Origin: Thermoplasmata archaeon
GTDB taxonomy: Archaea > Thermoplasmatota > Thermoplasmata > Lutacidiplasmatales > UBA184
Length of the DNA stretch: 64,000 nucleotides
NCBI GenBank assembly: GCA_021817245.1
Contig: JAKAVQ010000006.1
Location: 66,001-130,000 of the forward strand
Reading direction: 5' to 3'
Part shown: positions 5,027 through 63,810 of the stretch, piece after piece
Layout of the letters: each line of letters begins with the position of its first letter
How positions within the stretch are numbered: the first letter of the stretch is position 1
The notes under the pieces: generated by a model
Database searches by the model: none
Seen by the model: only the letters and a program-made list of their open reading frames with translations
What the model was told of the DNA's origin: nothing
Made by a program: the position numbers and the translations under genes

Positions 5027-5047
5027 CCGGGACGGCCGATCCGTGGC

Positions 5048-10582: not shown

Positions 10583-11398
10583 ATGCCGATCGAGGTCGAG
10601 CTCGCGACCAAGCGCCTCCAGTTGCAAGAGGGCGGCCTCCTGACGCGCATCCTCGACGAGGCGGTGGCGGCGACCGGCATGGAATTAGGGACCGTCCTGG
10701 ACTTCGGTGGACGCTCGGGCGCGAACCTCCAGCTCCTTGCGGACCGTCAGCGAATCCAGCGACGGGTCTGCTTCGACTTCACGCCCCCCGCGACCCCCCT
10801 ATCGGGTATCGAGTACGTCTCCGGAGCCTGGACGGAGCTCGCGGCGCACGTCCCGCCCCATTCCGTGGACCTCATCCTCGCGGTGGAGGTCATCGAGCAC
10901 GTCTATGATCCCGACGCCATGCTCGCCTTCTGCCGCCGCCTTTTGCGCCCGGGCGGCGTCCTCCTCCTGACAACACCGAATCTTTCCAGTCTCGTGAGCC
11001 GTCTCTCGCTGCTCCTCGGGTGGCAGCCGCTCGACACCGAGGTGAGCACCGTGACGCGATTCGGGTTCCCGGGAGCGACCCGGTGGAGCGTCGTCGGACA
11101 CATTCGGGTGTTTACGTTCCGGGCCCTGCTCGAGTTCCTGAGGTTCCACGACTGGAGGATCGAGCGGGCGTACACGGTCGCCCAAGGCCGGACCGCGCCG
11201 ACCGGCGGGCGGCTCTCCGGCGCGCTCGGATTCTACGCGCGGCTCGACCGTTTCGCGGGCCATTTCGGCCGTCGCTTGGCGTCGCACTCGATCGCGGTAG
11301 TCCGACCGAACGACCCGCCCCCGGTCCGGGAGGGGACCGGACCAGTCGTTTCCGCGGATCCGCGCGAGCGGACGCCCCCTTCGCCAACGGGAGAGTAG
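10583..11398 (+). CDS. Class I SAM-dependent methyltransferase
   Basis: LDFGGRSGAN motif I; HVYDPDAMLAFCRRLLRPGGVLLLTTPN; the upstream part of the ORF overlaps the tRNA, so the start is placed at the internal ATG at 10583. Confidence 0.6.
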   Translation: MPIEVELATKRLQLQEGGLLTRILDEAVAATGMELGTVLDFGGRSGANLQLLADRQRIQRRVCFDFTPPATPLSGIEYVSGAWTELAAHVPPHSVDLILAVEVIEHVYDPDAMLAFCRRLLRPGGVLLLTTPNLSSLVSRLSLLLGWQPLDTEVSTVTRFGFPGATRWSVVGHIRVFTFRALLEFLRFHDWRIERAYTVAQGRTAPTGGRLSGALGFYARLDRFAGHFGRRLASHSIAVVRPNDPPPVREGTGPVVSADPRERTPPSPTGE

Positions 11399-51383: not shown

Positions 51384-51492
51384 GCCCGTGTGGGGTAGCT
51401 ACGGGTCCGGGGCAATCCCCCCGGCTCGCTGCAATGGATTATCCTAGAGGCCTGCGGAGCCTCAGACCTGGGTTCGAATCCCAGCACGGGCG
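51384..51492 (+). tRNA. tRNA-Arg (anticodon GCG) with a ~35-nt intron in the D-loop; probable integration target
   Basis: Acceptor GCCCGTG/CACGGGC with discriminator G; anticodon arm GAGGC-CTGCGGA-GCCTC; T arm CTGGG-TTCGAAT-CCCAG; inserted block TACGGGTCCGGGGCAATCCCCCCGGCTCGCTGCAA sits at the same D-loop point as in tRNA-Pro. Confidence 0.7.
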
Positions 51493-51544: not shown

Positions 51545-52840
51545 ATGGCGAAGCGGATTGACCACCGACCCCTGCTCATGGACAAGCAAATCCGCACATG
51601 GTACGACGAGAACTCGCTTCGGTCGAGGCTGACCGCAGAGGTTAACCTTCGGCAACTCGGCCTCTTCTGTCACGTCACAGAAACCGATCCTCGACGACTC
51701 GTCCAGCTCGGTCAGAGAGATCCCGAGCGGCTGCACGGAACCCTCGTTCGATACGCGAAGACGCTCCAAGGATCGGGCCGGCTTCCGAGTTACATCGCAA
51801 AGACGTTCGTGGGAATCAAGGGGTGGCTTCGTTTCAACCGCGTCGAGTTCGACCAGTTTCCCCGACTCCGAGTGGTCCAGGGCGAATCCATCCGAGAGGA
51901 GCGCGTCCCCACCCAGGAGGAGCTTCGAAGGATCCTCTCGACCTACTCGGCCAGGGGGCGCGTCGTTTCCCTGCTCATGGCGCACACCGGAGTCAGACCC
52001 GGCGTACTTGCAGCGATTGACGGTAGCGATGGCCTCCGGCTCTCCGATTTGAAAGACCTCGAGTTGGGTGCGGACCCCAAGTTCGGGCGTGTGCCCTTTC
52101 ACTTGGTCGTCCCGGCTCGGCTCTCCAAGACCTCGGTCGAGTACCACACCTTCGGGACGCCCGAACTCGCTGACGCGATCCTAGCGTACCTCGCCGAGCG
52201 GCGACAACGAGGGGAGGAACTCAGACCTTCGTCCCCGGTTGTTACCGTCGACGCGATGGGCGCCCGGACAAAGCTACGCGAGAAGTCGAAGACCGGTTTC
52301 ATCACGACGCCGATGATGATGCGCGCTCTCCGGGACGGCCTCAAGGCGATCCTCCCGAGCGCGCGGACCTACGTGTTCCGCGCCTACTGTTCGACCCAGA
52401 TGGTCTCGGCACGGATCGACCGAGACGTGCGCGAGGCGATCTTGGGTCACTCCCTCGGAGTGAGCGGCCGGTACAACCTCTCGAAGAAGCTACACCCTTC
52501 GGTGGTCGAAGAGCTCCGCCGGGAGTACGCAAGGGCCGTTCCTTACCTCGAGTCGGGCCGCCCCAAGGAGGATCGCGCGACTGTCCTCGAGGGAGTCCTC
52601 GCGGCGCTGCTCAAGGAGAAGGGGGTCAAGGACGACAAGATCAGCGAGGTCCTCGAGGGCAAGGTTGCGGGGGACGAACTCGAACGGATCCTGGGCTCAC
52701 GCAAGGCGGAGCCCATCCAAAGGGTGGTCCCGACGACGGGGGTTTCGGAGCTGCTCTTGCTAGGCTGGGAGTTCGTTTCCCCGCTCGGGACCGACCAGGC
52801 AGTTCTCCGGGCGCCCGCGAACGGCACGGCCCCCGTGTGA
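51545..52840 (+). CDS. int: Tyrosine-type site-specific integrase/recombinase
   Basis: 431 aa; catalytic-domain pattern LMAHTGVRPG (Arg), ILGHSLGVSGRY (His-x-x-Arg ... Tyr) with an N-terminal SAM-like domain. Confidence 0.8.
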   Translation: MAKRIDHRPLLMDKQIRTWYDENSLRSRLTAEVNLRQLGLFCHVTETDPRRLVQLGQRDPERLHGTLVRYAKTLQGSGRLPSYIAKTFVGIKGWLRFNRVEFDQFPRLRVVQGESIREERVPTQEELRRILSTYSARGRVVSLLMAHTGVRPGVLAAIDGSDGLRLSDLKDLELGADPKFGRVPFHLVVPARLSKTSVEYHTFGTPELADAILAYLAERRQRGEELRPSSPVVTVDAMGARTKLREKSKTGFITTPMMMRALRDGLKAILPSARTYVFRAYCSTQMVSARIDRDVREAILGHSLGVSGRYNLSKKLHPSVVEELRREYARAVPYLESGRPKEDRATVLEGVLAALLKEKGVKDDKISEVLEGKVAGDELERILGSRKAEPIQRVVPTTGVSELLLLGWEFVSPLGTDQAVLRAPANGTAPV

Positions 52841-52935: not shown

Positions 52936-54225
52936 TTACTCGACTTTCCGTTCCCACCCCGCCCTCGAATAGATGCGCTGACGTTCGACCACTACCGTCC
53001 CGGTCGCTTGTCCAAGCCATCGGAGGTAGGAACGGACGCTCTTTGCCCTCCGTATGGGGGTCGAGCCTCGCAAGTGCGACGTGGCCTCGATGATGCGAGC
53101 TACTTCGGAGTCACTCACTCCCTCGGCCCCCCTCTCCCGCACGAGGCTGAACACGCGGTTGAGTAGAGGATTCTTGAGCAATCGTTCGGCGACAAGTAGT
53201 TCCCTTCTCTCTTGGGGAAGCCCCACGTACTGCCTTCCCTTGTCGGTGAGTGCGAACACTCCCTCTTCGAGCCGTACGAGCCCGAGTGCTTCCGCGGCTT
53301 CGCGGTAGTAACTCCCTTGACGGGTGGTGATCTTGTAGTGGTCCGCCCACCCCTTCGCCGTCGTGATTCCCGATTGGACGAGAAGGGGTAGCTCCACGAC
53401 CTTCCGCAAGTCATCGGCTTGGGGGACGATATCGACGCTCGGGTCGGGCGTGACGTCACTCAACCAATCTTGGGGAGCCTGCTCTTCGACGACCCGGTAT
53501 CGGGCCCTGCTTCGGCACCTGATACTCTCGTAGTCGTACGAGTCCGTCCACTCGTATTCCCACACCGAATAGGTCGAGACATCGGGTTCGGCAACGAAGA
53601 AGAACGAGCGGACGCTCTTGCCGGGCGACCACTCCCGGAACGTTCGGTAGGGAAAGTAGAGTTGCCGAACGAGAAAGTCGCGGCGGGTGTCGGCCTTTCC
53701 TTCGAAGAGCAGAACGTCACGCGGACCTTCGAACCCGGCGTCGAGTTCCATACCGGCTCCCCGAACGTCGAGATTCGGCGAGCCGTCGATTCGAAACGTG
53801 AACGTGCCGCTCCCCATCTTTCCCGAGATGGTTTGGTAGAGGGACGGGACGCCCGAGAAGTGGCTCAGGAGGCCCGTGTGGTAGGCGTGGAGGAGAAACC
53901 GGTTCTCCCCTTTACCATACGCAAGTGTCGTGAGCGAGATGGGCAGTCGGGCGCGGTAGGCTTGCGGCTCGCCGGGGTCTTCGAGTTCGTGGTAGCCCCT
54001 CCCACGAACTACGGCGTACCGAGATCGCGAGAGGGGGACCACGAACACGCCGTTATCGCGGAACAAGGTAGGGAGCTTGTCTTCGGAATCCATCGAAGCG
54101 AGCAGGCGGGGCTCGACACCGAGATGGATGTGGATGTCTTGGTTGGTGACGAAATTGACGGGGGCCGTGATGTCGAGATGGAGCTTGTCAATGAGTTCGG
54201 ACCATCGCTCGTGAAGTACGACCAT
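52936..54225 (-). CDS. Putative type II restriction endonuclease with additional C-terminal winged-helix domain
   Basis: 429 aa; directly downstream of, and co-oriented with, a Dam methylase; PD-(D/E)xK-like GMELD...LFEGK; C-terminal about 140 aa looks wHTH. Confidence 0.45.
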   Translation of the reverse strand: MVVLHERWSELIDKLHLDITAPVNFVTNQDIHIHLGVEPRLLASMDSEDKLPTLFRDNGVFVVPLSRSRYAVVRGRGYHELEDPGEPQAYRARLPISLTTLAYGKGENRFLLHAYHTGLLSHFSGVPSLYQTISGKMGSGTFTFRIDGSPNLDVRGAGMELDAGFEGPRDVLLFEGKADTRRDFLVRQLYFPYRTFREWSPGKSVRSFFFVAEPDVSTYSVWEYEWTDSYDYESIRCRSRARYRVVEEQAPQDWLSDVTPDPSVDIVPQADDLRKVVELPLLVQSGITTAKGWADHYKITTRQGSYYREAAEALGLVRLEEGVFALTDKGRQYVGLPQERRELLVAERLLKNPLLNRVFSLVRERGAEGVSDSEVARIIEATSHLRGSTPIRRAKSVRSYLRWLGQATGTVVVERQRIYSRAGWERKVE

Positions 54226-54229
54226 CGAC

Positions 54230-55060
54230 CTACCCGTAATTCATCACAAGCAACTCGTCAATCGCGCCGCGGGCCGTCCCCTTGGAGTTGATGGCTCGCT
54301 TTGCCTTCAACGCCTCAATCCGGAACCCGTCGTAGAGCGTCTTGACGAGCGGCGTCGCGGAGTTGGAGAGCATCACGAGGACCCCCCGCTTGTCGAGCCG
54401 GCGATAGGTTTCGGCAAGCTTCCTTTGCTCTCGGTTTCCGAAGTCCTCTTTGGTGTAGCTCGTGAACTTGGACGTTTCGCTCAACGGGTGGTAGGGGGGG
54501 TCCAAGTAAACGAAGTCCCCGATCTTGACCCTCGCACACACCTTCTGGTAGTCGGCGAGGACAATGTTCTTACCGCGGAGAAGGGCACTCGTCGCGGGCA
54601 AGTTCTCCCGGTCGTAGAGAGTTGGGTTCTTGTAGCCGCCCCACGGGACGTTGAAGTTGCCGTCGGAGTTTACCCGATACAAGCCGTTGAAGCACGTCTT
54701 GTTCAGGAAGATGGTTCGTGCGGCTCGCTCGACCGACGAGAGCGTAGATGGGTCCGTGGCTCGAACCTTGTAGAAGTAGGCTTCCTCGGTTCGTTGCGGG
54801 AGGTGTTCGTCGAGCGCCCGCATTAGGCCGCCGGGGTCATCGCGAACGATTGTGAACGTGTTGACGAGTTCGGGGTTCGAGTCGGACAACATGGCCTTCT
54901 CGGGCTGGAGATGGAAGAAGACGGCCCCTCCCCCGAGGAACGGCTCGAAGTACGTTCGAAAGTCCTTCGGGAAGAACGGCTCCATCTGGGGAATAAGTTG
55001 GGCCTTTCCCCCCGCCCACTTGAGAAAGGGGCGCGCCGGGAGGAGGGTCTGGGCCAGCAC
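54230..55060 (-). CDS. dam: DNA adenine methyltransferase (Dam/D12 class N6-adenine MTase)
   Basis: 276 aa; motif I FLKWAGGK...FEPFLGGGAVFF and catalytic DPPY (VYLDPPYHPLS). Confidence 0.85.
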   Translation of the reverse strand: MLAQTLLPARPFLKWAGGKAQLIPQMEPFFPKDFRTYFEPFLGGGAVFFHLQPEKAMLSDSNPELVNTFTIVRDDPGGLMRALDEHLPQRTEEAYFYKVRATDPSTLSSVERAARTIFLNKTCFNGLYRVNSDGNFNVPWGGYKNPTLYDRENLPATSALLRGKNIVLADYQKVCARVKIGDFVYLDPPYHPLSETSKFTSYTKEDFGNREQRKLAETYRRLDKRGVLVMLSNSATPLVKTLYDGFRIEALKAKRAINSKGTARGAIDELLVMNYG

Positions 55061-55410
55061 GCGGGGCCACCAGCAACGGACTACTTACGCGGAACGCTCA
55101 CCGCCACGTCGAACCCGTAGCCGGCGAGGAATCGGGCGGATCTACCCCCGAAAGAGCGCCGTGGAGCCTCTTTGACGGCCCTGTGAACGAAGGATCTGGG
55201 GGTATCGACGGGCGGCCCGTGGGAACAGGAGAGAGAAACGCTCGGGCCCCGTTTTCGGTTCCGACGCGAACTGGGACATGGGCGAGGGCACGATAAGCCT
55301 GCGAGGGTCGGGGGTGGCGGGGCGCAGTAAGGGGGGATGTGCGTAGGCATCACCCACTCTTGTGGATGCTCCCCGCAGGAAGCCATGTGTGTACGCGCGT
55401 TCGAACCGCG

Positions 55411-55522
55411 GCACCGGCCGGTGCCCGGGAAGCGTAGGCCGGTGTCGTCCGGTGCCGTCGGGGACCGCGCCCCGTGCCGCTTGGTGCCGCAACGGTGCCG
55501 AGCCGGCGTCGGTCCGGTGCCG
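55411..55522. repeat. Iteron-like cluster: at least 7 copies (4 perfect) of GGTGCCG / CGGTGCCG within about 110 bp
   Basis: Read directly: GGTGCCC 55420, GGTGTCG 55441, GGTGCCG 55451, GTGCCG 55474, GGTGCCG 55483, 55494, 55516; inverted copy GCACCGG at 55411. Confidence 0.5.
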
Positions 55523-55634
55523 TCGACAAACCCGGGCGATGTGACGCTCTCCGACACCAAGCCGGTTGCAGATCGCGAAGAGACGGGGGGCGGCACTGGG
55601 AGATGCGACGTTACCCGTTACTGTGGAGGCGGCC

Positions 55635-56134
55635 TGATGTGGCGCGCTCCAACGCGCGCGCGTGAGGACGGAACGGACCGGACCACGCGCTTCCTGCTTT
55701 CCAGCAGGCGGCGTGATGTGGCGCGCTCTCTCACGGGCGCGCGAGGGGGGGAGGATCCGGGCCGGACGAGGACGCGCCGGACGAGTGGGACGAGCCGGAC
55801 GAGTGCTCGCCCCGGACGACTCCCGTTGGCCGGCAGCTGGTCGCCTACCTGGACCGGGAGCAGGCGCTTTCGGCGGCAAAGGATCGCGCCGGGGCGGAGC
55901 GACGCAAGCCTCCCGTCTGCGAGGACTGCGGGGCACGATTCAGCCGGAGGGATGCGATGGAGCGCCACCAATGGAGCGTTCACGGGAATGGAGCGTGACG
56001 CCCGTGGTGGTGGTGGGCGGGGCGCCCCGCCATATATATATCCCGTGCGCGCGCGAGGACGGACCGGACCACGCGCTTCCTGCTTCCCAGGAGGCGACGT
56101 GAAGTGGCGCGCGCTCTCACGCGCGCGTGAGGGG
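55635..56134. repeat. Two ~75-bp imperfect direct repeats (55674-55750 and 56061-56134, about 90% identical) plus a partial third copy (55635-55667)
   Basis: GGACCGGACCACGCGCTTCCTGCTT(T/C)CCAG(C/G)AGGCG(G/A)CGTGA(T/A)GTGGCGCGC..CTCTCACG(G/C)GCGCG(C/T)GAGGGG; contains CCTGCT..AGCAGG and GCGCGC..GCGCGC inverted repeats. Confidence 0.6.
56031..56041. promoter_or_regulatory. (TA)5 alternating tract, strong TATA-box candidate just upstream of repeat copy 2
   Basis: CATATATATAT, the only pure AT tract in about 2 kb; flanked by CGCGCGCG. Confidence 0.35.
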
Positions 56135-56424
56135 AGCGAGGTCTTCCCCCGGACGAGGACGAGCCGAGGGACAACCTCGTGACACGTTACCAGTAGGAGC
56201 GGGCCGGATCGAGACACTCCGGGCACGGGTCGCCAAGTCGCATCGAGCCGCTGGGCGGTCCCGGGTCCCCGGTCCTGACGCGCGAGAACTACACGCGCGA
56301 GAGGGGGCGCGGGCTCGTCCGGGCGGGCGGGACGAGGGCGGGTCGCTCGCCCGCACACACAAACGGACACGGCCCGTTCCGGAACGTTGTCGGTGGAGGA
56401 AGAGAGCGGACGAGGACGAGTCGG

Positions 56425-56913
56425 TCATGCGCTCGCCCCTCCCGACGGTGCGCACCGCTTGAGATGGCGGCTCAGATTGTCCCGCCGAACCGAGAGGCCG
56501 CACCAGGGGCAGGGAGCGCGGTAGGCACCAGACCAGGCCGAGGGACGGTCAGGGGAGGTGGGCGTGGAGTCCTTCGCTCTCTTGGCCTCTCCTCGAGGCG
56601 GAAGGGGAGAGGGTGGCAGTGGTGGTGGGCGAATAGGCGCGGTACGTACCGTATCCGTTGCGGGGACGAGCGAGGGTCGGACGAGTCGGGGCCACCCCCC
56701 TCCCCGCTCACACATATGGGACACGGCCCGTTCCGTAACGTTTCCGGACCGGAGGGAATAGGCGGTCGCTCCGCTGCGCTCACAACCGGTGCCCGGTATA
56801 GGGCAGGGTCGTCCTCTCCGCGCGCACCGCGTGCACCTTGTGCGCAGACGTCTCCATGCCGTCCGCTCCCACGGAGAGTCCACTTCGTGCGTGCCTCTGG
56901 CGTGTGCGGTCAT
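56425..56913 (-). CDS. Candidate small zinc-finger protein (zinc ribbon plus C-terminal C2HC finger)
   Basis: C-terminal CPWCGLSVRRDNLSRHLKRC (C-x2-C-x12-H-x3-C) and upstream CTRC...CPIPGTGC; start assigned to an internal Met; speculative. Confidence 0.3.
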   Translation of the reverse strand: MTAHARGTHEVDSPWERTAWRRLRTRCTRCARRGRPCPIPGTGCERSGATAYSLRSGNVTERAVSHMCERGGGWPRLVRPSLVPATDTVRTAPIRPPPLPPSPLPPRGEAKRAKDSTPTSPDRPSAWSGAYRAPCPWCGLSVRRDNLSRHLKRCAPSGGASA

Positions 56914-57172
56914 GGGAACAGCCGCAGGCCGAGTGCAACCGGCGGTCGCACGCAGTCCCCGGCGGCGACGACAAGCGATAGACCCACGCGAGATGATGGT
57001 GTGAGCAAAGTCCCCGCCCGAGAACCGTCGCCCGAGTCTCGGTGTGACCCAGGGGGTACGACCGAAGGGCTGGGTCCGGGCCCGGGCGGGATCTCGCGCG
57101 ATCGGTGCCAAGGACCCGGGCCGAAGGAAGGATTTATCATTCAGCGACATATCCCATCCCTCCCGAGGGGAT

Positions 57173-57436
57173 ATGTCCGAGAAGAGTCGCCATCTGGTAG
57201 AATCCCGACTTGCGCGCATTGAAGGTCACATACACGCCGTCCACCGCATGGCCCATGAAGGAAGGAGTTACCCCGAGATCGTCCACCAGATCTCCGCTAT
57301 TCGATCTTCCTTGGATGCCGCGGTTCAAGCAATCGTTGACGATCTGGTTCGGAGCTGTATCCACGACGCGTCCGGCAACGAATCCATTGCCTCGACCGTG
57401 GAGGAACTTCAGGCCGTCGTCGCCAGCGCTCTCTAG
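57173..57436 (+). CDS. CsoR/RcnR/FrmR-family metal-sensing transcriptional repressor
   Basis: 87 aa; LARIEGHIHAVHRMAHEGRSYPEIVHQISAIRSSLDAAVQAIVDDLVRSCIHD matches the DUF156 helical-bundle pattern; His/Cys ligand positions present. Confidence 0.75.
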   Translation: MSEKSRHLVESRLARIEGHIHAVHRMAHEGRSYPEIVHQISAIRSSLDAAVQAIVDDLVRSCIHDASGNESIASTVEELQAVVASAL

Positions 57437-57468
57437 CGAGTACCCTCCCCCCTCCTTCCCGGGTACAA

Positions 57469-58374
57469 ATGCCGATCCTTCAGCACGGAGAGGGAGAAGC
57501 CGAAGCCCGCATACTGGTGGGGCTCCGCCTCGCTGTCCAGCTCAGCGTGGTGATTCTTGTGATGGAGGCCCTCGGTGCCTTCTTCTCTCGCAGTCTTTCG
57601 CTGACCGTAGACGCCGTTCACGACCTTCCCGACATCTTCGCGTTCCTGCTGTCCTGGGGGGCCTTGAGGTCGACGTCGAAGGGGCCTTCCGAAGGGTTCA
57701 CTTTCGGCTCGCACCGCTTGGAAACCTTCGCGGGCGTTCTCAACGCGGTGGTCGTTCTGATCGTGGGCGCCGCCTTCGGGGCGGAAGCGTTCTCTGCACT
57801 CTGGTCAAGAAGCACCTTCGCCGGCCCCGTGAACGCCGTCTGGCTTCTCGCCGCGGCGGTGCCCACCCTGGTGCTTAGGCTAATCGGTGTCGGCGTTCTG
57901 AACCGGCTCCCGGGAAAGGTCCGGGACCTGAATCTCGCGAGCGTTCTCCTCCACATGGCGAGTGATATCGCTATCACGGGGGCGCTTCTCGTCGTAAGCG
58001 CCGTCCTCTTCATCCAGCCTGCTTGGGGGGTGGCCGATCCCATTGCCGCCCTCGTCATCGCCGGAGTCCTTGTCTACGAGTCGATTCCACTGCTGCGAGA
58101 AGGGTGGAGAATCCTTACCGAACGTGCTCCGAGAGGTATCTCAGTGGAGGCGATTGAGCGAGAGGCCCTCAGCGTCCCGGGTGTTTCGGGACTGCACGAT
58201 CTCCACGTCTGGTCAGTTTGCAGTTCCCTCGTCTGCCTCACCGCGCATGTAGGAGTGAAGGAAATGTCGCTTCGAGACTGCATGTCGGTCGTCGCAGAGC
58301 TGAGGAGCAAAATGGAGCGCGAGTTCGGCATTGTCCACGCCACGTTTGAGATAGAGGGACAGTCGAGCGCGTGA
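57469..58374 (+). CDS. Cation diffusion facilitator (CDF) family metal exporter
   Basis: 301 aa; six TM helices with HD/HD-like metal site motifs (AVHDLPD; HMASDIAI) and C-terminal cytoplasmic domain. Confidence 0.85.
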   Translation: MPILQHGEGEAEARILVGLRLAVQLSVVILVMEALGAFFSRSLSLTVDAVHDLPDIFAFLLSWGALRSTSKGPSEGFTFGSHRLETFAGVLNAVVVLIVGAAFGAEAFSALWSRSTFAGPVNAVWLLAAAVPTLVLRLIGVGVLNRLPGKVRDLNLASVLLHMASDIAITGALLVVSAVLFIQPAWGVADPIAALVIAGVLVYESIPLLREGWRILTERAPRGISVEAIEREALSVPGVSGLHDLHVWSVCSSLVCLTAHVGVKEMSLRDCMSVVAELRSKMEREFGIVHATFEIEGQSSA

Positions 58375-58620
58375 GGAGGTCGTTCCTCCGGGGGCCATTT
58401 GGGGGTTGGCTCTTGGTTCGAAACGGATCGAGCCCGATGGGACCGAACCCTCACATCGTTCACCGACTTCGAGATCCTGCGGATGCTGAACCGTACGCTC
58501 CGGAGCGTCGGCGGCATGCCCTGTAGGGCAGTCGAGTGCGGATGAACTGACGGCCGGCGCGGTCCCTAGCCGAGTTCGATGGCGACAGATCTTGTCCGTC
58601 CGGTTTCGTATCAACTGGGG

Positions 58621-59241
58621 TCAACCGAGCTTCCTCAAGATGAACCGCCGCGAGAACGGCTTGGCTTTGCCTGGGATCACCTCCCACGAACGTCGCGAAA
58701 GCAACTCGCGGAATCGCCGCTCCGATGTCCGCAGGGCCCTACCGCGGCTGGTCAAGCCCGGACCAATCGTCACGAAGGTCACCAAGGCGCGGCCTCCCGG
58801 TTTGAGGATTCGCCACATCTCCTCCATCGCTCGCTCCTTGTCGACCAGGCAACAAAGGAGCCCGTTCGAAAGGATGTAATCCACACTGCCGGAGGGGATG
58901 GACGGCACCGAAGCTGCGGAGCAATGGATGAACTCCACCCGGTCCGTCACCTCCAAGGTGGTGGCGACCTGCCGCGCCAACGACAGGGCGTCGTCGTCGA
59001 GATCGACGGCGTAGATCCGTCCCGCTACCCCGATTCTCCGACTTAGCTCTGCGAGGAAAAACCCGCCTCCGGCACCGAGGTCCGCAACCACGTCCCCCGG
59101 CCTGGGCGGGCAGAAGTCAATCAGGCGGCCCGGCTTCTTGAACCACCGTCGAAGCGGGTTGTGGAAGAACCACGTCGGCAGGGTTCGGTCCCGAACACCC
59201 AAAGTCGACACGGTTCCGGGCGACCTTCCGAAGAGAGGCAC
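58621..59241 (-). CDS. Class I SAM-dependent methyltransferase (type 11)
   Basis: VVADLGAGGGFF motif I; ILKPGGRALV post-II. Confidence 0.6.
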   Translation of the reverse strand: MPLFGRSPGTVSTLGVRDRTLPTWFFHNPLRRWFKKPGRLIDFCPPRPGDVVADLGAGGGFFLAELSRRIGVAGRIYAVDLDDDALSLARQVATTLEVTDRVEFIHCSAASVPSIPSGSVDYILSNGLLCCLVDKERAMEEMWRILKPGGRALVTFVTIGPGLTSRGRALRTSERRFRELLSRRSWEVIPGKAKPFSRRFILRKLG

Positions 59242-59255
59242 GCGACGTTGGGAGG

Positions 59256-60116
59256 TTACGGCATGTTCATCGGGCCAGGTCCACCGCAGCAGTCCTCGAG
59301 GTTGATGACCGTGACCACCTGTTGCGCATCGTATCCATACTGCACGATCAAGGCCTTGGCCAAGCCCTCATGAGCATAGTAGGCCCAGCACTGGCAGCAG
59401 CACCAGCCGTTGTCGTTCGTGTTGCTAGCCGCCGTGTTGAAGATGGCTTGCTGGCTCGAGGTGAGCCCATCGCCGGCATGCGCCACGTCGGCTTTCGCCG
59501 TGTGCGCGACCACGTTGTAGGGGTCGGGCGGGATGAGGGAGATCGAAGCGTAGCTCGTGAGCCCCGGAATCTGGGACGAATAGTCCGGGGTGTAGTCCAT
59601 CGGACTGCAACACGAGCCTTGGATGTAGGTGGTGTCCGCCAATCCGTTGATCCAGTTGACGTACGCCGTTTCATCGCCGAGACTGACTCCCGTCCACACA
59701 CACGCGTCGGTGGACTGTTGGCTGAGGTAGTTGAATTCAACCTGGGTCCCTGCCGCTCCCGGACCCGGGTTGGTTCCCGGTTTCGGTGGGCCTCCGAAGA
59801 GAACGCCCGACGTGAAGATGAGGTAGAGCACCAGGATCAGCACGGTGACGGCGGAACCGCCGATAATGATTGAGCGCAATCGCTTCCGGCCGCCTCGGCC
59901 GGCTCGGTCTCCCCCGCGATCGGGACCTCCCGGAGCTTGGGGTCCCGAACGGCTGCTCCGGGAGCGACGCTGGAAATAGAGCGCCCGCAGGGCGCGGCCG
60001 GCGTCAGCGCCCGGAGGGGGGTGGAAGCCGGCCTTCCGATCCCTGGCCACCTTGTCCCAACTGACCCCGTCGGCGCGAAGCTGTTCGACACGCTCCCAGT
60101 CGGTCATGCGTCGCAA
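59256..60116 (-). CDS. Membrane-anchored Cys-rich extracellular protein (hypothetical)
   Basis: Single TM (AVTVLILVLYLIFTSGVLF) then a domain with 10 Cys (CC, CCCQC, CC). Confidence 0.4.
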   Translation of the reverse strand: MRRMTDWERVEQLRADGVSWDKVARDRKAGFHPPPGADAGRALRALYFQRRSRSSRSGPQAPGGPDRGGDRAGRGGRKRLRSIIIGGSAVTVLILVLYLIFTSGVLFGGPPKPGTNPGPGAAGTQVEFNYLSQQSTDACVWTGVSLGDETAYVNWINGLADTTYIQGSCCSPMDYTPDYSSQIPGLTSYASISLIPPDPYNVVAHTAKADVAHAGDGLTSSQQAIFNTAASNTNDNGWCCCQCWAYYAHEGLAKALIVQYGYDAQQVVTVINLEDCCGGPGPMNMP

Positions 60117-60318
60117 CTACCCGGACAACGGATATATAGATTGACCGCGCGCGGGCAACCGACGGGAACGGGCTGCTGGGCCACCCGGTGTCGACGGCCG
60201 GATTCTCCCTCCGGACGGTCGGGTTCTTGAACGGCCGCATCAACAAAATGGCAACGCAGGGCCCGACGAGCGTCGCCCCCGCGGTTCGTACCCCCCTGAC
60301 AAGTAGCGGGATGAGTGG

Positions 60319-60963
60319 TTGCACTCCCGAGGGAGACGTCCTACCATGACCGGCGTCGCGGAGCAAGGTGAGGGATGGATCCTCCGCCATCGTGGAGCGG
60401 TTCGTCGGTCGGCCCGTATGGTCTTCGGATTCGTCTGGGGAATCGATGCCGCGCTCGCGTTCTTCCCGCAGACTCCGTTTTGGTTCTCGGAGAGCGTTCT
60501 CGCCGCGAGCATCGGCCAGCCTTCCTGGCTCTCCGGCTGGTATGCCTTCTGGGTGGTCCAAGCCCAGCAGTACGCAGCACTGGACGTGGGGGTCGTCACC
60601 TTTCTCGAACTCGCGTTGTGCGTTTCGCTCATCGTGGGACTTTTGAGAAAGACCGCCTACCTCGGGGGGATAGGCCTGAGCTTGTTCATTTGGGCGGTTC
60701 CTAATGGGTTCGGAGGCCCGTACGACGTAGGCACTTTTGACGTGGGAGTGGGCGTCATTTACGCGATCGCGTTCCTGTTCCTGATGGTGCTTGACGCCGA
60801 CCCATCCGCCAAGGTAGGGACCGTCGACGGGTGGATCGAGCGCCGTTGGCCGGGTTGGGCCCGCTGGGCGGAGGTCTCTACTTCGGTATTCCGCGCTCAG
60901 GAGAGGGTCTCTCGCAGACCTCATGAGGTCCCAGCAACTCCTCCGGTCCGGCAGGACCCATGA
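60319..60963 (+). CDS. Integral membrane protein, paralog A of a three-member family (VPxGFGGPY motif; DoxX-like?)
   Basis: FIWAVPNGFGGPYDVGTFDVGVGVIYAIAFLFLM; stop overlaps the cupredoxin start (ATGA). Confidence 0.5.
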   Translation: MHSRGRRPTMTGVAEQGEGWILRHRGAVRRSARMVFGFVWGIDAALAFFPQTPFWFSESVLAASIGQPSWLSGWYAFWVVQAQQYAALDVGVVTFLELALCVSLIVGLLRKTAYLGGIGLSLFIWAVPNGFGGPYDVGTFDVGVGVIYAIAFLFLMVLDADPSAKVGTVDGWIERRWPGWARWAEVSTSVFRAQERVSRRPHEVPATPPVRQDP

Positions 60964-61682
60964 CAGCCGGCAAGGAGCATGCCGCAATCGACTCGCCGGC
61001 GACCGGCCAGCACCCTCCGGGTCGTCCTCTCGGGCCCGTCGTCGTCGTTCTGGTGGTGGCGATCCTCGTCGGTCTCGCGGGGACTGCCTTCGCCTTTATG
61101 ATCGTCGAAGCGCCGTCACTGGCTTCGGCAGGATGCCCCTCGGTCGCTCAGTACGACCCTACGGTCTCGACGATCAACAATCAGACGTTCACCGAAGATA
61201 ACTCCCTGCCCCCGGGGGTCAGCGAAACTCCGGCGATGAATTCGATTACGCTCACGGCGACCGGGGCGACGTTGCTCATCGAGGGGGCGCCCGGGTGGTA
61301 TCCTCACTCCGGGAACTACTTCCTGAGCTACGGACTCGTGAACCCGCAACTCTCCGTGCCTTCGGGAGAGCCGGTGCGGTTCGAATTCATCAACATGGAC
61401 AACGAGTCCCACGACTTCGCGCTGACCACCCAGCCGCCGCCGTATCCCTACATGCCGATGATGAGCGGGGGAGGGATGATGGGAATGGGTGGCGGGAGCG
61501 GCTGCTGGCTTTCCGTGGGGTCGATGATGGTCAATGGAATAACGGCACCGAGCGCAAACCCGGTCTACCAGACCACCGCTGCCACGCTCAGCTTCGCGGG
61601 CCCGGGGACGTTCTGGTATCTCTGTCTGATGCCGGGCCACGCTCAATCGGGGATGTACGGTCAGCTGACCGTCCGAGGCTGA
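60960..61682 (+). CDS. Membrane-anchored type-1 copper protein (sulfocyanin/plastocyanin-like cupredoxin)
   Basis: N-terminal TM; Cu ligands in FINMDNESHDFAL (His) and WYLCLMPGHAQSGMYG (Cys-x2-His-x4-Met), the canonical cupredoxin C-terminal loop. Confidence 0.7.
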   Translation: MTAGKEHAAIDSPATGQHPPGRPLGPVVVVLVVAILVGLAGTAFAFMIVEAPSLASAGCPSVAQYDPTVSTINNQTFTEDNSLPPGVSETPAMNSITLTATGATLLIEGAPGWYPHSGNYFLSYGLVNPQLSVPSGEPVRFEFINMDNESHDFALTTQPPPYPYMPMMSGGGMMGMGGGSGCWLSVGSMMVNGITAPSANPVYQTTAATLSFAGPGTFWYLCLMPGHAQSGMYGQLTVRG

Positions 61683-62325
61683 CGCCGGATTCCCGCGGTG
61701 GTGCGGCGGGCTGCGTCGGGGCCCGGGCTTGAACCAGCCGTTGCCACGCCGGCCATCGCCGTCCCACGGTCGTGTCGAGCGTGAACCGGGGCGGTCCCGA
61801 AATCGAGTCGAGATGGAGTAAGGCGAGGAAGACGACAGCGTACAGGATTCCGGTGCCCATGTCGGTGCTCCCGGGACCATAGGGTCCTCCGAAACCCTGG
61901 GGTACTGTCCAGAGGAAGATGCTGAGGACCAGACCGAGCAGGTACACGGGCCTGCGCAGCAAGCCTGTGAACAGGCAGAACCCGATTGCGAGTTCCACCA
62001 ACCCGAAACCGTACCACCAGAAGACCGGGTTCCCTGCGACGATGCCCGCCCAAGCGGAGAACCAGCCCATGAGCCATGGCGGTTGACCGTCTTCGACCAT
62101 GACCACCGTCCAGTACGAAAGCTGCGAGTAGGTCCCGGGAAGGAATCGGAGCAGGCCATCCGCCATCCAGACACTTCCGAAGAGGATCCGGAGGGCCGTC
62201 GTCCGAAGCGACGGGGAGAAGATCTCTCGGAACCGCCCGCCCCACGCGGCGGCCACGGAGGCGAAGACCGTCGCGCCGAGGAGTAGCAGGACGGCCACCT
62301 CGAGGGCCAGAGCGATCTCGCTCAT
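61588..62325 (-). CDS. Integral membrane protein, paralog B
   Basis: LWTVPQGFGGPYGPGSTDMGTGILYAVVFLALL. Confidence 0.5.
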   Translation of the reverse strand: MSEIALALEVAVLLLLGATVFASVAAAWGGRFREIFSPSLRTTALRILFGSVWMADGLLRFLPGTYSQLSYWTVVMVEDGQPPWLMGWFSAWAGIVAGNPVFWWYGFGLVELAIGFCLFTGLLRRPVYLLGLVLSIFLWTVPQGFGGPYGPGSTDMGTGILYAVVFLALLHLDSISGPPRFTLDTTVGRRWPAWQRLVQARAPTQPAAPPRESGVSLGRSADRTSPIERGPASDRDTRTSPGPRS

Positions 62326-63323
62326 TCGTAGATCAACCCCATGCTGTTGTCGGAGGGCGTGGAAACCACGGCTCGCTGGGAGGCTGGGGCTTTGTGTTCC
62401 GCCCCACGAAGGCGACGACTTCGCGCGGGCACGGAGGGGCGATCATCGGTCCGACGGACGCTGCGAAGCCAGTGCCACCGTCTCGGACGAAGGGAGGTCA
62501 AGGAGGGAGGGGCGGAGGAAGGGCTCCCCACATTGGGCGGAAGACCGGCACCTCCCGGGTCGTGGGAATCGTCCGGAGTCAGCCGACGAAAGGACGCGCC
62601 ACCGATGATTCGCCATGCCGGCCATCGGCGCTCGAGGGCGGGATCGCCCGCCAGTCGAGCCGGGCCCGATACCGAATCCATCCGGAGGAGGATCAGAAAG
62701 AGCACGGCGTACAGCAGGCCCGCGCCGATGTCGGTGTTGGGAGCGGCGTAGGGACCGCCGAATCCGTTCGGGACCGCCCAGAGCATGAGGCTGAAGAGGA
62801 ATCCCACGACGTACGCCAGTCGACGGGCGACCCCGAGGATGAGGCAAGCGGCAAGGAACGCCGTCAGTACCCCGGTGCCATACCACCAGAACCCGGGATC
62901 TGCGGCGATCACGCCGGCCCAATACGAGAACCACCCGGAGAGCGCGGGCTGTTCTTGGCCGGCTCCGACGACGAGCAGGTACGCCAATTGCGTGGGAGCT
63001 CCGGGGAGGAACTGGAGAGTCGCATCCACTGCCAGGATTCCCCCCAGCAAGAGGCGGAGGCAGGCAACGCGACTTCCCGGAGACCGCAGACGAAACGTCT
63101 CCGGAAACGCGAACAGCGCCCCGAGAACGATCGCGACGAGAGCCATGGTCATTGCCGCAAACTCGGCCGGTACGAACAGCTCCGACATTCCGGAAAGCAA
63201 CTGCCGGTAGACGTAGGTCGGCCGGAGACAAGAGGCCTGCTCCCCCGCGGAGAAGGTCTCCCCGTCGCTCCGAGCAACACCTAAAGTTAAGTGTCGGGTG
63301 CCGATGACAAGACCTTCCACCAT
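62322..63323 (-). CDS. Integral membrane protein, paralog C (start may be the internal Met near 63188)
   Basis: LWAVPNGFGGPYAAPNTDIGAGLLYAVLFLILL; stop overlaps the paralog B start (ATGA). Confidence 0.5.
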   Translation of the reverse strand: MVEGLVIGTRHLTLGVARSDGETFSAGEQASCLRPTYVYRQLLSGMSELFVPAEFAAMTMALVAIVLGALFAFPETFRLRSPGSRVACLRLLLGGILAVDATLQFLPGAPTQLAYLLVVGAGQEQPALSGWFSYWAGVIAADPGFWWYGTGVLTAFLAACLILGVARRLAYVVGFLFSLMLWAVPNGFGGPYAAPNTDIGAGLLYAVLFLILLRMDSVSGPARLAGDPALERRWPAWRIIGGASFRRLTPDDSHDPGGAGLPPNVGSPSSAPPSLTSLRPRRWHWLRSVRRTDDRPSVPARSRRLRGAEHKAPASQRAVVSTPSDNSMGLIYE

Positions 63324-63810
63324 GCAACCGGTCTCCGTCGACGCGATCCACGTCCCGACCCGCGGATCTCCGGTAGGCGCGACGATCCGTCACCCGGTCC
63401 TCGTGGCCCTGGTTTCGCTGGAACTCGGTTTGTTGGCCGTCCAGTTCGCGCTCGGAATGTTCGTCAATCTGTATGTGACGTTCCCGTCGCCCGTCTTCGG
63501 GATGTACGGCTTGATGCAACTGATGTTCCAGCCGGGAATGGGGACCGTAATGGCTCACATGATGACCGGCATGGTCTTGGGCGCCCTCACCCTGCTCACG
63601 TTCGCGGCCGCCGCCCTCTCCCGAAACACGCTCCTGATCGCCGCGACCGGGGGGACGTTCGCCGCTGTAGTGGCAGCGGGAATCAGCGGCATGGAGTTCT
63701 TGTTCTCCGGGCAGAATAACGCCTACTCGTACGGGATGTCACTGGGGTTCCTCTTGGCGTTTACGATGGCGTTTCTCAGTCTTCTCGTCGCATCGGGCCG
63801 GACGAGATAG
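63298..63810 (+). CDS. Met-rich integral membrane protein (possible Cu(I)-handling)
   Basis: 170 aa; four TM helices; MYGLMQLMFQPGMGTVMAHMMTGM Met-rich motif. Confidence 0.4.
   Translation: MPMTRPSTMQPVSVDAIHVPTRGSPVGATIRHPVLVALVSLELGLLAVQFALGMFVNLYVTFPSPVFGMYGLMQLMFQPGMGTVMAHMMTGMVLGALTLLTFAAAALSRNTLLIAATGGTFAAVVAAGISGMEFLFSGQNNAYSYGMSLGFLLAFTMAFLSLLVASGRTR

Follow-up and report, generated by a model that had tools for sequence, protein, structure and literature searches.

Zinc fingers of the classical C2H2 and C2HC kinds typify eukaryotes and are found only sparingly in archaea. The question raised by the locus described here is whether two such motifs, encoded on opposite strands of a GC-rich, repeat-bearing part of an archaeal genome, are genuine protein modules, to which proteins they belong, and whether the copies present are still genes. 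The locus lies in a window of 64,000 nucleotides (the whole stretch analysed; Thermoplasmata archaeon, GenBank assembly GCA_021817245.1, contig JAKAVQ010000006.1, positions 66,001 to 130,000), within what is probably an element integrated at a tRNA-Arg gene. The plus-strand finger (ZnF1) and the minus-strand finger (ZnF2) are likely to be two genuine single-finger modules of plasmid-like integrative elements, of which the window holds truncated copies. In the first family, a long helix would lead to a near-Krueppel C2H2 finger at the very C-terminus, and the part ahead of the finger would be akin to the C-terminus of a ~337-amino-acid (aa) P-loop ATPase. In the second, the finger gene would be translationally coupled behind genes for a Prim-Pol replicase and a serine recombinase, with two small helix-turn-helix (HTH)-like genes next.

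Two zinc-finger families and their coding frames

The ZnF1 frame (55717-55995, plus strand) reads CGALSHGRARGGGSGPDEDAPDEWDEPDECSPRTTPVGRQLVAYLDREQALSAAKDRAGAERRKPPVCEDCGARFSRRDAMERHQWSVHGNGA, includes the peptide VCEDCGARFSRRDAMERH, ends in RRKPPVCEDCGARFSRRDAMERHQWSVHGNGA and is bounded by TGA codons at 55714-55716 and 55996-55998. A preliminary description of this DNA, made from the letters alone, had reported a plus-strand peptide that fits the C2H2 consensus and runs to the second of these stops; this was confirmed, with the finger at 55918-55983 and all four ligands and the Phe intact. Its further statement that the frame holds no ATG, GTG or TTG is right upstream of the finger but not within it, where a sole in-frame ATG at 55957 encodes the Met of DAMERH. 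ZnF1 is the only match to C-x2-4-C-x12-H-x3-5-H in six frames of the 64 kb, and when the motif was compared with simulated sequence of the same composition, as had been proposed, the strict C2H2 pattern occurred in none of 300 second-order Markov simulations of 64 kb (0.01 per 64 kb with local composition). The proposed hidden Markov model (HMM) search gave matches of window ZnF1 to zf-C2H2_4 (E = 8e-4, 20.3 bits) and zf-C2H2 (E = 1.2e-3, 19.7 bits) and, for ZnF2, a weaker one (E = 0.086, 13.8 bits), all of them below gathering scores. Single fingers often score under the Pfam gathering cut-offs, and the ZnF1 homologue P0001 reaches 24.7 bits with zf-C2H2 against a cut-off of 25.2.

Protein searches returned two homologues of ZnF1, P0001 (96 aa, in two NCBI assemblies) and P0002 (93 aa, on six contigs), to which the window sequence is 82% and 79% identical, respectively, from VGRQLVAYL onward only. 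Nucleotide homology of 86% over 55817/55823-56056/56063 does not end at the stop codon but takes in a flank of 60 nt that is likewise conserved. The hydrophobic core of the finger is found in the window (Phe, Met) and in P0001, and P0002 has Leu for the Phe and Tyr for the first Cys. A three-sequence family profile matched 619 proteins among 1.84 billion representatives through its finger columns 63-90; among the best 150 of the 619, most are long proteins matched repeatedly, i.e. multi-finger proteins. Against the PDB the profile matched Aart finger 6, PRDM9, ZNF568, WT1 and Zif268 (E = 6.7e-16 summed, best single finger 19.7 bits), the best single finger being aligned to the profile stretch kapvcedcGarlsrrdamqrhqrsvhGn (window KPPVCEDCGARFSRRDAMERHQWSVHGN). 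No relatives of the family profile were found in species-representative genomes or IMG/VR contigs.

ZnF2 forms the C-terminus of the minus-strand open reading frame (ORF) 56425-56913, which ends in SAWSGAYRAPCPWCGLSVRRDNLSRHLKRCAPSGGASA with the tail APCPWCGLSVRRDNLSRHLKRCAPSGGASA. The spacing C-x2-C-x12-H-x3-C previously given for it needs correction to x11; in this and in having Cys as fourth ligand it departs from classical C2H2 spacing, and a deletion of one residue has removed the aromatic core position. Against simulated sequence, the C2HC pattern taken by itself is less telling than the C2H2 pattern, being not rare by chance (0.04-0.27 per 64 kb). The tail, with the consensus (A/P)WSGAxRxPCPx(1-2)CGxxxRRDNxxRHxKRC, was found on contigs L005 (twice, once in a 206-aa gene), L072 and L074 and in the proteins P0153 (237 aa), P0154 (222 aa) and P0155 (201 aa), and its core has 19 invariant columns in five sequences. 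Full-length members consist of an N-terminal Cys-rich domain (~1-75), a disordered Pro/Ser-rich linker and the C-terminal finger. In the AlphaFold model of ZnF2, strands at 66-68 and 75-77 and a helix at 78-87 have predicted local distance difference test (pLDDT) values of 71-85, with disorder elsewhere, and the top Foldseek matches to this model are all zinc fingers (ZNF32, Sgf11, and the UBZ fingers of RAD18 and WRNIP1), none of them significant. In the PDB, the ZnF2 profile matched Aart, a consensus finger, the RAD18 UBZ and Sgf11. A profile of the 60-column tail alignment found nothing at E ≤ 1 in a set of 5.8 billion proteins, and family members were obtained with the full ORF as query. 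In IMG/VR, the tail gave only a 15-residue match in a viral contig of 32% GC, which was dismissed. A separate observation concerns contig L075 (JGI Ga0209679_1108801, 47% GC), on which a 410-aa ORF at 167-1399 contains CSMCGLSVRRDNLSRH, with 13 consecutive residues identical to the C2HC finger of the window; its composition is very different and the contig may be eukaryotic.

In the finger frame of ZnF1, the ratio of non-synonymous to synonymous rates (dN/dS) is 0.18, 0.25 and 0.36 for the three pairs (0.18-0.25 for those including the window), against 0.87-12 in the other two frames. For the 28-codon core of ZnF2 it is 0.07-0.24, with dS up to 1.9, whereas the other frames give at least 0.74 and, with a single exception, values above 1. 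By these sequence comparisons, both fingers are real coding sequence in their finger frames, held under purifying selection. That the motifs arose by chance in the translation of GC-rich DNA that codes for nothing is highly improbable: although the stretch is gene-poor, has 70% GC with all six frames open, and yields Pfam scores below the gathering thresholds, the strict pattern was absent from every simulation, the homologues share 55-82% aa identity with frame-specific selection, and the profiles match solved fingers.

Profile-profile comparison aligned the two families with a probability of 64% (E = 6.6e-5) over 24 columns (PCPxCG..-.RRDN..RH with PVCEDCGARFSRRDAMERH). The claim that the two are paralogous therefore stands for the finger and fails for the proteins, which belong to two unrelated families; as judged from the alignments, ZnF1 and ZnF2 share the classical finger framework in unrelated host proteins. 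They lie 0.5 kb apart and convergent in the window, and 2.5 kb apart on the same strand in L005.

The N-terminal halves of P0001 and P0002 match residues ~221-272 of P0049, a 337-aa P-loop ATPase (Walker A GQGRGKS, Walker B VIIDE) of which P0076 is a shorter relative, and at their C-termini P0049 and P0076 have an HTH-like tail where the ZnF1 family has the finger. On contig L007 the ATPase homology continues straight into the finger, and the 96-aa gene of L005 is a partial ATPase copy, from ~residue 221 on, with an HTH-tail fragment just past the ZnF1 unit. P0049 had no PDB or NCBIfam match, a match to phrog_1979 (unknown function), insignificant matches to Pox_A32 and a DnaA-like family, and none in IMG/VR.

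For the second family, P0154 is encoded on L076, a contig of the metagenome-assembled genome (MAG) YP1.bin27, which has a relative of the window integrase at its own GatD/tRNA-Arg site. The gene order on L076 is an integrase-like gene (43% identical to that of the window), several unknowns, an 833-aa Prim-Pol, a 157-aa protein, a 251-aa resolvase-family recombinase, ZnF2 (222 aa), a 109-aa HTH-like protein, repeats and a 79-aa protein, and adjacent genes overlap by 4 nt. In L074, the 221-aa ZnF2 gene likewise stands directly after a serine recombinase. Neither finger family is annotated in Pfam, NCBIfam or PHROG, nor are most other proteins of the element, and no named plasmid family matched it.

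Truncation and rearrangement of the window copies

The fingers had been described as two peptides, in keeping with a mobile-element regulator; neither is intact here, the plus-strand one comprising no more than the final 57 codons of a gene of 93-96 aa, and the minus-strand one being a truncated tail. P0001 and P0002 start with GTG and carry ~38 additional N-terminal residues (STVLPYLAxGLRGF...DVQELERxLSGSSD) that are absent from the window; ZnF1 lacks a start because the window holds only the last 57 codons, the upstream part having been replaced by repeat. The fragment is joined at ~55820 to repeat copy B and a run of GGACGAG heptamers, and a conserved motif and repeat copy C follow it. The window copy of ZnF1 is probably dead, a 57-codon piece from the 3' end of the gene that lies trapped by a repeat copy on either side. 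In the sister assembly contig L002, 55981 C>A is the sole difference from the window in 1193 aligned nt and changes the last ligand from His to Asn, which, as one observation, points to relaxed constraint on ZnF1. L007 is a clear pseudogene (IS630 insertion, a stop within the frame, frameshifts, Tyr in place of the first ligand Cys, Leu in place of Phe), a state that its near-neutral count of branch substitutions fits (3 synonymous to 7 non-synonymous; 5 to 5 in L005). On L007, the IS630-family transposase (64-1029) lies inside the P-loop ATPase gene, the rest of which spans 987-1715, and a second transposase fragment is at 5032-5286.

The window branch of ZnF1 carries 9 synonymous and 4 non-synonymous substitutions, a bias implying either that the truncation is recent or that the fragment is still used. 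In a rival reading, ZnF1 would be a live gene: a product of 93 aa, consisting of an acidic PDEDAPDEWDEPDE linker and the finger, would start at an ATG at 55716 in repeat B and be completed by a +1 shift or by slipped-strand variation at a run of seven Gs (55745-55751). Removal of one G does give an uninterrupted 93-aa ORF from this ATG, a Shine-Dalgarno-like AGGCGG lies ahead of it, and the ligands and Phe are intact. However, two further assemblies have the same G run, the ATG belongs to a repeat with a conserved palindrome which in the intact element precedes a different gene on the other strand, 55717-55822 has no homologue in the family, the sister population has lost the last ligand, and open frames are cheap at 70% GC; this reading is regarded as unlikely.

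The ORF 56425-56913 as a whole is not the gene: it is homologous to the ZnF2 family only from ~56766 downwards, and frame-breaking indels relative to the closest relative lie upstream of an ATG at 56715. The N-terminal Cys-rich domain was not found by tblastn in any frame of the window (residues 114-222 only; 97-222 in a looser search). In the closest relative, L079, the sequence upstream of ATG 56715 is ~98% identical to the window but has a frame-breaking 2-nt indel, so that the coding potential of longer ORFs, among them a 241-aa automatic call, is not conserved. Downstream of the ATG, the comparison with L079 gives a dS of 0.58 and a dN/dS of 0.41 (0.27 in the finger part), within the range of 0.31-0.41 for the tail overall and 0.16-0.27 for its finger part. 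Two compensating indels (-1 and -5), 35 nt apart, leave a 96-aa frame open in both the window and L079. The compensated indels, dN/dS and branch counts make a 96-aa product plausible, and the odds are about even that the window still yields, with ATG 56715 as its start, a ~96-aa ZnF2 protein of linker and finger.

A rather less probable alternative is that both window fingers are dead relics and the ZnF2 tail unexpressed debris. The Cys-rich domain is missing, as are the Prim-Pol and resolvase genes, no strong TATA box stands ahead of the ZnF2 ORF, the 2-nt indel breaks the frame upstream of 56715, and the 109-aa and 79-aa genes are only stubs. Of the former, the first codons alone are homologous, and tblastn found no match beyond them in the window; the ATGA overlap with the ZnF2 stop and the MTD(S/P)S start recur at L076 10666, L079 1060, and L005 173 and 640. 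Of the latter, the remnant falls within 55366-55577, which is 80% identical in nucleotides to L076 11554-11771. Against complete decay stand the ORF from ATG 56715 or GTG 56724, which the two mutually compensating indels have left open in L079 as well as here, the dN/dS values just given, and a window-branch count like that of the intact copy.

Several observations concern the same stretch. The segment 56700-57071 (minus strand) is ~98% identical to L079 427-800 with frame-breaking indels, and the mosaic boundary is sharp at ATG 56715. An RNA gene in the repeat region or in 56700-57071 was considered and rejected (no Rfam match at E ≤ 1; fold z-score +1.4). The automatic 241-aa and 265-aa ORFs placed across the repeat region on the identical contig L001 are unsupported by comparison.

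The repeats themselves derive from the element. Copies A and B correspond, in reverse complement, to L076 11232-11313, a stretch that precedes the gene for the 79-aa protein in the intact element, where the palindrome TCTCACGCGCGCGTGAGA is perfect over 18 bp and repeat units occupy 11008-11049 and 11232-11313. Copies B and C bracket the ZnF1 fragment as direct repeats spaced 386 nt apart, and a 22-nt inverted repeat joins 55757-55778 to 56306-56327. DNA of the same organism is present in four other assemblies at 99.9-100% identity, three of which, independent of one another, break exactly at the repeats (55664, 55681 and 56093); contigs L003 and L004 end in repeats A/B, and L002 ends at 56093 in repeat C. 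An apparent ORF start, MWRALSRARE, inside repeats A, B and C was rejected as a by-product of the conserved DNA palindrome rather than coding sequence. On L076, a partial duplicate of the 3' end of the 109-aa gene (LAALREGKTVRAICTSLKVGTHRVV, 11130-11230) lies between two repeat copies, by which the repeats appear to promote duplications.

The conserved flank of ZnF1 contains a TATA-like run, one of only five all-A/T octamer sites in 64 kb, and a GC-rich motif. The combined motif, ATATATAT-C-N-GTGCG(C/T)GCGCG, occurs at 56032-56055 in the window, at L007 1752-1772, and in two copies in L005, where TATATNTCNCGTGCGYGCGCG stands on both sides of the P0001 gene (2632-2652 and 2995-3015) and the TATA-like run 2630-2639 begins ~33 nt (centre ~31 nt) before the GTG at 2665. 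The motif is likely an archaeal promoter that also marks recombination junctions. GGACGAG heptamers reach 6.05/kb in the finger region against 0.56/kb in the rest of the window, and cluster beside ZnF2 genes in L005, L072 and L074 (background 0.76/kb in related genomes); they may be arrays of iteron-like binding sites, or may merely encode Ser- and Asp/Glu-rich linkers. The whole finger/repeat block, 55366-56742, is inverted relative to L077 857-3389.

This arrangement raises an alternative in which the finger segments would be cassettes, moved or inverted between repeats by the serine recombinase of the element and swapping C-terminal DNA-binding ends (HTH for C2H2). In a narrower form, the ~240-nt unit 55823-56063 (linker, C2H2 finger, stop and TATA/GC motif) would be a mobile cassette that recombines at GC-rich motifs, possibly via the serine recombinase, replaces the DNA-binding C-terminus of an ATPase of the element and brings a promoter for the gene downstream. 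The ZnF1 unit does lie between direct repeats B and C and, in L005, between two copies of the TATA/GC motif with an HTH-tail fragment just beyond; a resolvase/invertase-family gene stands directly upstream of ZnF2 in L076 and L074; the window block is inverted relative to L077; the 22-nt inverted repeat is present; the mosaic boundary at ATG 56715 separates ~98% identity from a dS of 0.58; and L005 holds two ZnF2 tails. On the other hand, the window has no recombinase gene, no alternative orientations were seen and the assemblies of the organism are identical, a trial junction at inverted CCGGACGAG copies gave no in-frame fusion, and ordinary illegitimate or homologous recombination among decaying copies predicts the same pattern. 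Both the general and the narrower form are accordingly held to be improbable, and truncated copies of two genuine modules remain the favoured explanation.

Relation to known zinc fingers and possible function

Among known systems, ZnF1 is closest to the Krueppel C2H2 fingers (PF00096; Aart finger 6, Zif268, PRDM9), which it resembles in Cys-side spacing, Phe and hydrophobic position, K-P-x-x-C-x2-C-G-x2-F-S-R-R-D-A-[LM]-x2-H-Q being a near residue-for-residue match to the best single finger in the PDB search. Unlike the fingers of Krueppel arrays, it is single, stands at the end of an archaeal mobile-element protein and has H-x4-H rather than H-x3-H. To our knowledge, AFV1p06 is the only archaeal classical finger to have been characterised biochemically. 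This C2H2-like finger of a crenarchaeal virus (PDB 2LVH) binds zinc and prefers GC-rich DNA; members of its family have a conserved post-finger extension of loop, helix and third strand, and a euryarchaeal sister group of the family is of unclear, cellular or viral, origin (PMC3541406). AFV1p06 is likewise a single classical-type finger on an archaeal mobile element. In contrast to it, ZnF1 ends 4 residues past the last His and ZnF2 8-9 past the last Cys, and their hosts are mesophilic soil Thermoplasmata; 2LVH is absent from the PDB matches of both profiles. With no downstream extension and no sequence match, ZnF1 is not a member of the AFV1p06 family.

The spacing C-x2-C-x11-H-x3-C occurs in the RAD18 and WRNIP1 sequences, whose UBZ fingers, as in other eukaryotic DNA-damage proteins, bind ubiquitin. 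ZnF2 aligns without gaps to the RAD18 UBZ (query 12-36, chain 7-31) and to Sgf11 (14-40, 11-37), representatives of the UBZ4 (RAD18, WRNIP1, FAN1)/Sgf11 type, which implies the same spacing, while alignment to C2H2 fingers needs a one-residue gap. Foldseek superposed the model on RAD18, WRNIP1 and Sgf11 with root-mean-square deviations of 0.5-0.9 A over 20-25 residues. These matches are not significant (HMM E = 0.04-0.06; Foldseek E at least 0.4 for the top matches, and given as at least 0.6 for the UBZ4/Sgf11 comparison), and nothing suggests ubiquitin binding for ZnF2. The haloarchaeal C(P)XCG protein HVO_2753 is another small archaeal zinc protein, and the ZnF2 knuckle reads CPWCG, CPRCG or CPQCG. 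HVO_2753, however, has two C(P)XCG pairs forming a four-Cys site, not Cys2-His-Cys, and ZnF2 scores 13.4 bits with NF041909 against a cut-off of 80 and matches PDB 9fhl at E = 0.53. The prokaryotic Ros/MucR C2H2 proteins, which have C-x2-C-x9-H-x3-4-H within a fold of ~58 residues, were rejected as relatives: the spacing here is x12 or x11, and ROS_MUCR did not appear in the Pfam output. At the level of the element, the nearest likeness is to integrative plasmids of archaea that encode a Prim-Pol and have their integrase beside a tRNA gene; L076 has an integrase, the 833-aa Prim-Pol and small DNA-binding genes, and the window has the integrase at tRNA-Arg without a replicase.

Each module would bind one zinc ion and fold as strand-strand-helix, and, by analogy with AFV1p06, the fingers may be the nucleic-acid-targeting ends of element proteins. 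As candidate targets, GC-rich palindromes and GGACGAG repeats accompany the genes. Since one finger alone contacts just a few base pairs, it probably works with a second element, for which the long helix before ZnF1 and the N-terminal Cys-rich domain of ZnF2 are candidates.

A number of points weigh against two genuine modules with truncated window copies. The DNA binding and its targets are suggested by analogy. Window ZnF1 falls below the Pfam gathering scores (19.7 bits where 25.2 are required, and 20.3 where 27 are), and the AlphaFold model of its family is of low confidence (mean pLDDT 66.7), the strand-strand-helix finger having only ~64-65 and the long helix before it (residues 39-63) 70-78. 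No intact ATPase-finger fusion was found, and all three ZnF1 lineages sit in rearranged DNA, so that the ancestral architecture is inferred. The excess of synonymous changes on the window branch of ZnF1 has a P of ~0.001-0.01 under neutrality. On the window branch of ZnF2, 13 synonymous and 12 non-synonymous substitutions are similar to the counts of the intact L076 copy, a level of constraint by which 'decayed' may be the wrong word for ZnF2.

Classical fingers on archaeal mobile elements are already known as a kind, and both families are additions to it. They define two previously unannotated finger families on plasmid-like elements of soil Thermoplasmata and extend the host range and protein contexts of such fingers; what is new in context is that one ends a P-loop ATPase module and that the other is encoded in an operon together with a Prim-Pol replicase and a serine recombinase. 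They also supply candidates for testing the use of single fingers by archaeal mobile elements. In annotation, the plus-strand finger becomes a gene fragment and the 241-aa call an over-extended ORF. Were the improbable cassette reading true, archaeal plasmids would possess a system of cassettes for exchanging domains, with a Krueppel-like finger at its centre.

The island, its host and neighbouring features

The suspicion that this is mobile-element DNA was borne out by an island at tRNA-Arg with an integrase and by the presence of the ZnF2 family in the Prim-Pol/serine recombinase operon of an intact relative. The tRNA-Arg(GCG) adjoins GatD and GatE, genes that identify the host as archaeal, and past it (after 51 kb) the GC content falls from ~70% to 59-65%. 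Among 58 related genomes, in which the adjacency of tRNA-Arg and GatD is conserved, five have an integrase homologue at the same position, so that integration has recurred here. The integrase beside a tRNA, the change in composition and the absence of the element from the same site in relatives were all observed; the 64-kb window showed neither a second att copy of the 3' end of the tRNA nor the right boundary of the island. The element in the window is probably integrated at tRNA-Arg, and its stretch from 55.1 to 57.0 kb is rearranged and partly decayed. GatD of the window is 60-79% identical to those of many 'Thermoplasmata archaeon' MAGs from soil, peat and sediment, including UBA184, and the host is an uncultured, mesophilic, high-GC soil or peat Thermoplasmata archaeon. 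Searches for sigma-70-like promoters and for intrinsic terminators were negative, in keeping with an archaeal host. The features of the locus are collected in Table 1.

Table 1. Positions of the fingers, repeats and associated features in the window
Feature	Position	Strand	Remarks
tRNA-Arg(GCG)	51424-51492	+	left end of island
Tyrosine-integrase-like gene	51545-52840	+	PHROG integrase, E = 7.8e-10
Remnant of 79-aa gene	55493-55576	-	last 28 codons; tblastn of L076 11402-11641, 71% identity, 28 aa
Tandem repeat copies A (55627-55684) and B (55706-55794)	55627-55794		both with degenerate GC palindrome
GGACGAG heptamers	55764-56685		12 copies, 11 on + strand
ZnF1 remnant	55825-55998	+	last 57 codons and stop of 93-96-aa family; 86% nt identity to L005 2782-2955 and L007 1542-1715
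C2H2 finger core CEDCGARFSRRDAMERHQWSVH (ZnF1)	55918-55983	+	C-x2-C-x12-H-x4-H; in full C-x2-C-x3-F-x5-M-x2-H-x4-H
Conserved non-coding 3' flank of ZnF1	55999-56063	+	TATA-like ATATATATAT 56032-56041, GC-rich motif 56035-56055; nearly identical in L005 and L007
Repeat copy C	56044-56166		perfect 16-bp palindrome CTCACGCGCGCGTGAG at 56116-56131
Start ATGACCGACTCGTCC (MTDSS) of 109-aa HTH-like gene	56414-56428	-	ATGA overlap with ZnF2 stop; first codons only homologous
Shortest conserved ORF of ZnF2, 96 aa	56425-56715	-	MCERGGG...RHLKRCAPSGGASA to stop; ATG 56715 and GTG 56724 conserved in L079
ZnF2 tail	56425-56766	-	homologous to residues ~114-222 of 201-222-aa C2HC proteins (P0154, P0155, L005 206 aa, L074 221 aa); tblastn 56% identity, 117 aa
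C2HC finger core WSGAYRAPCPWCGLSVRRDNLSRHLKRC (ZnF2)	56452-56535	-	Cys...Cys span 56452-56511; C-x2-C-x11-H-x3-C

After the integrase, a D12-class adenine methyltransferase and then a 429-aa DUF6996/DUF6997/DUF7226 protein occupy 52936-55060 on the minus strand and are probably a restriction-modification pair carried as island cargo. The finger-bearing repeat region, ~2 kb with 70% GC, follows this pair, and a CsoR-type metal-sensing repressor (57044-57436, plus strand; Pfam E = 1.7e-17) and a cation-diffusion transporter come next. An automatic call on L001 places a 75-aa ORF at 57137-57364 on the minus strand, antisense to CsoR. Beyond these genes, 58438-63809 is co-linear with L077 3618-8996, from the same sample as L001 (ERZ27237313), over 5.4 kb at 87% identity, CsoR and the cation transporter (57044-58374) intervening in the window only. 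This co-linear part includes a 286-aa ORF (59256-60116, minus strand) that has no Pfam match, contains a transmembrane-like segment and Cys-rich motifs (CCSPMDY and CCCQCWAYYAHEG), and is itself 87% identical in nucleotides in L077.

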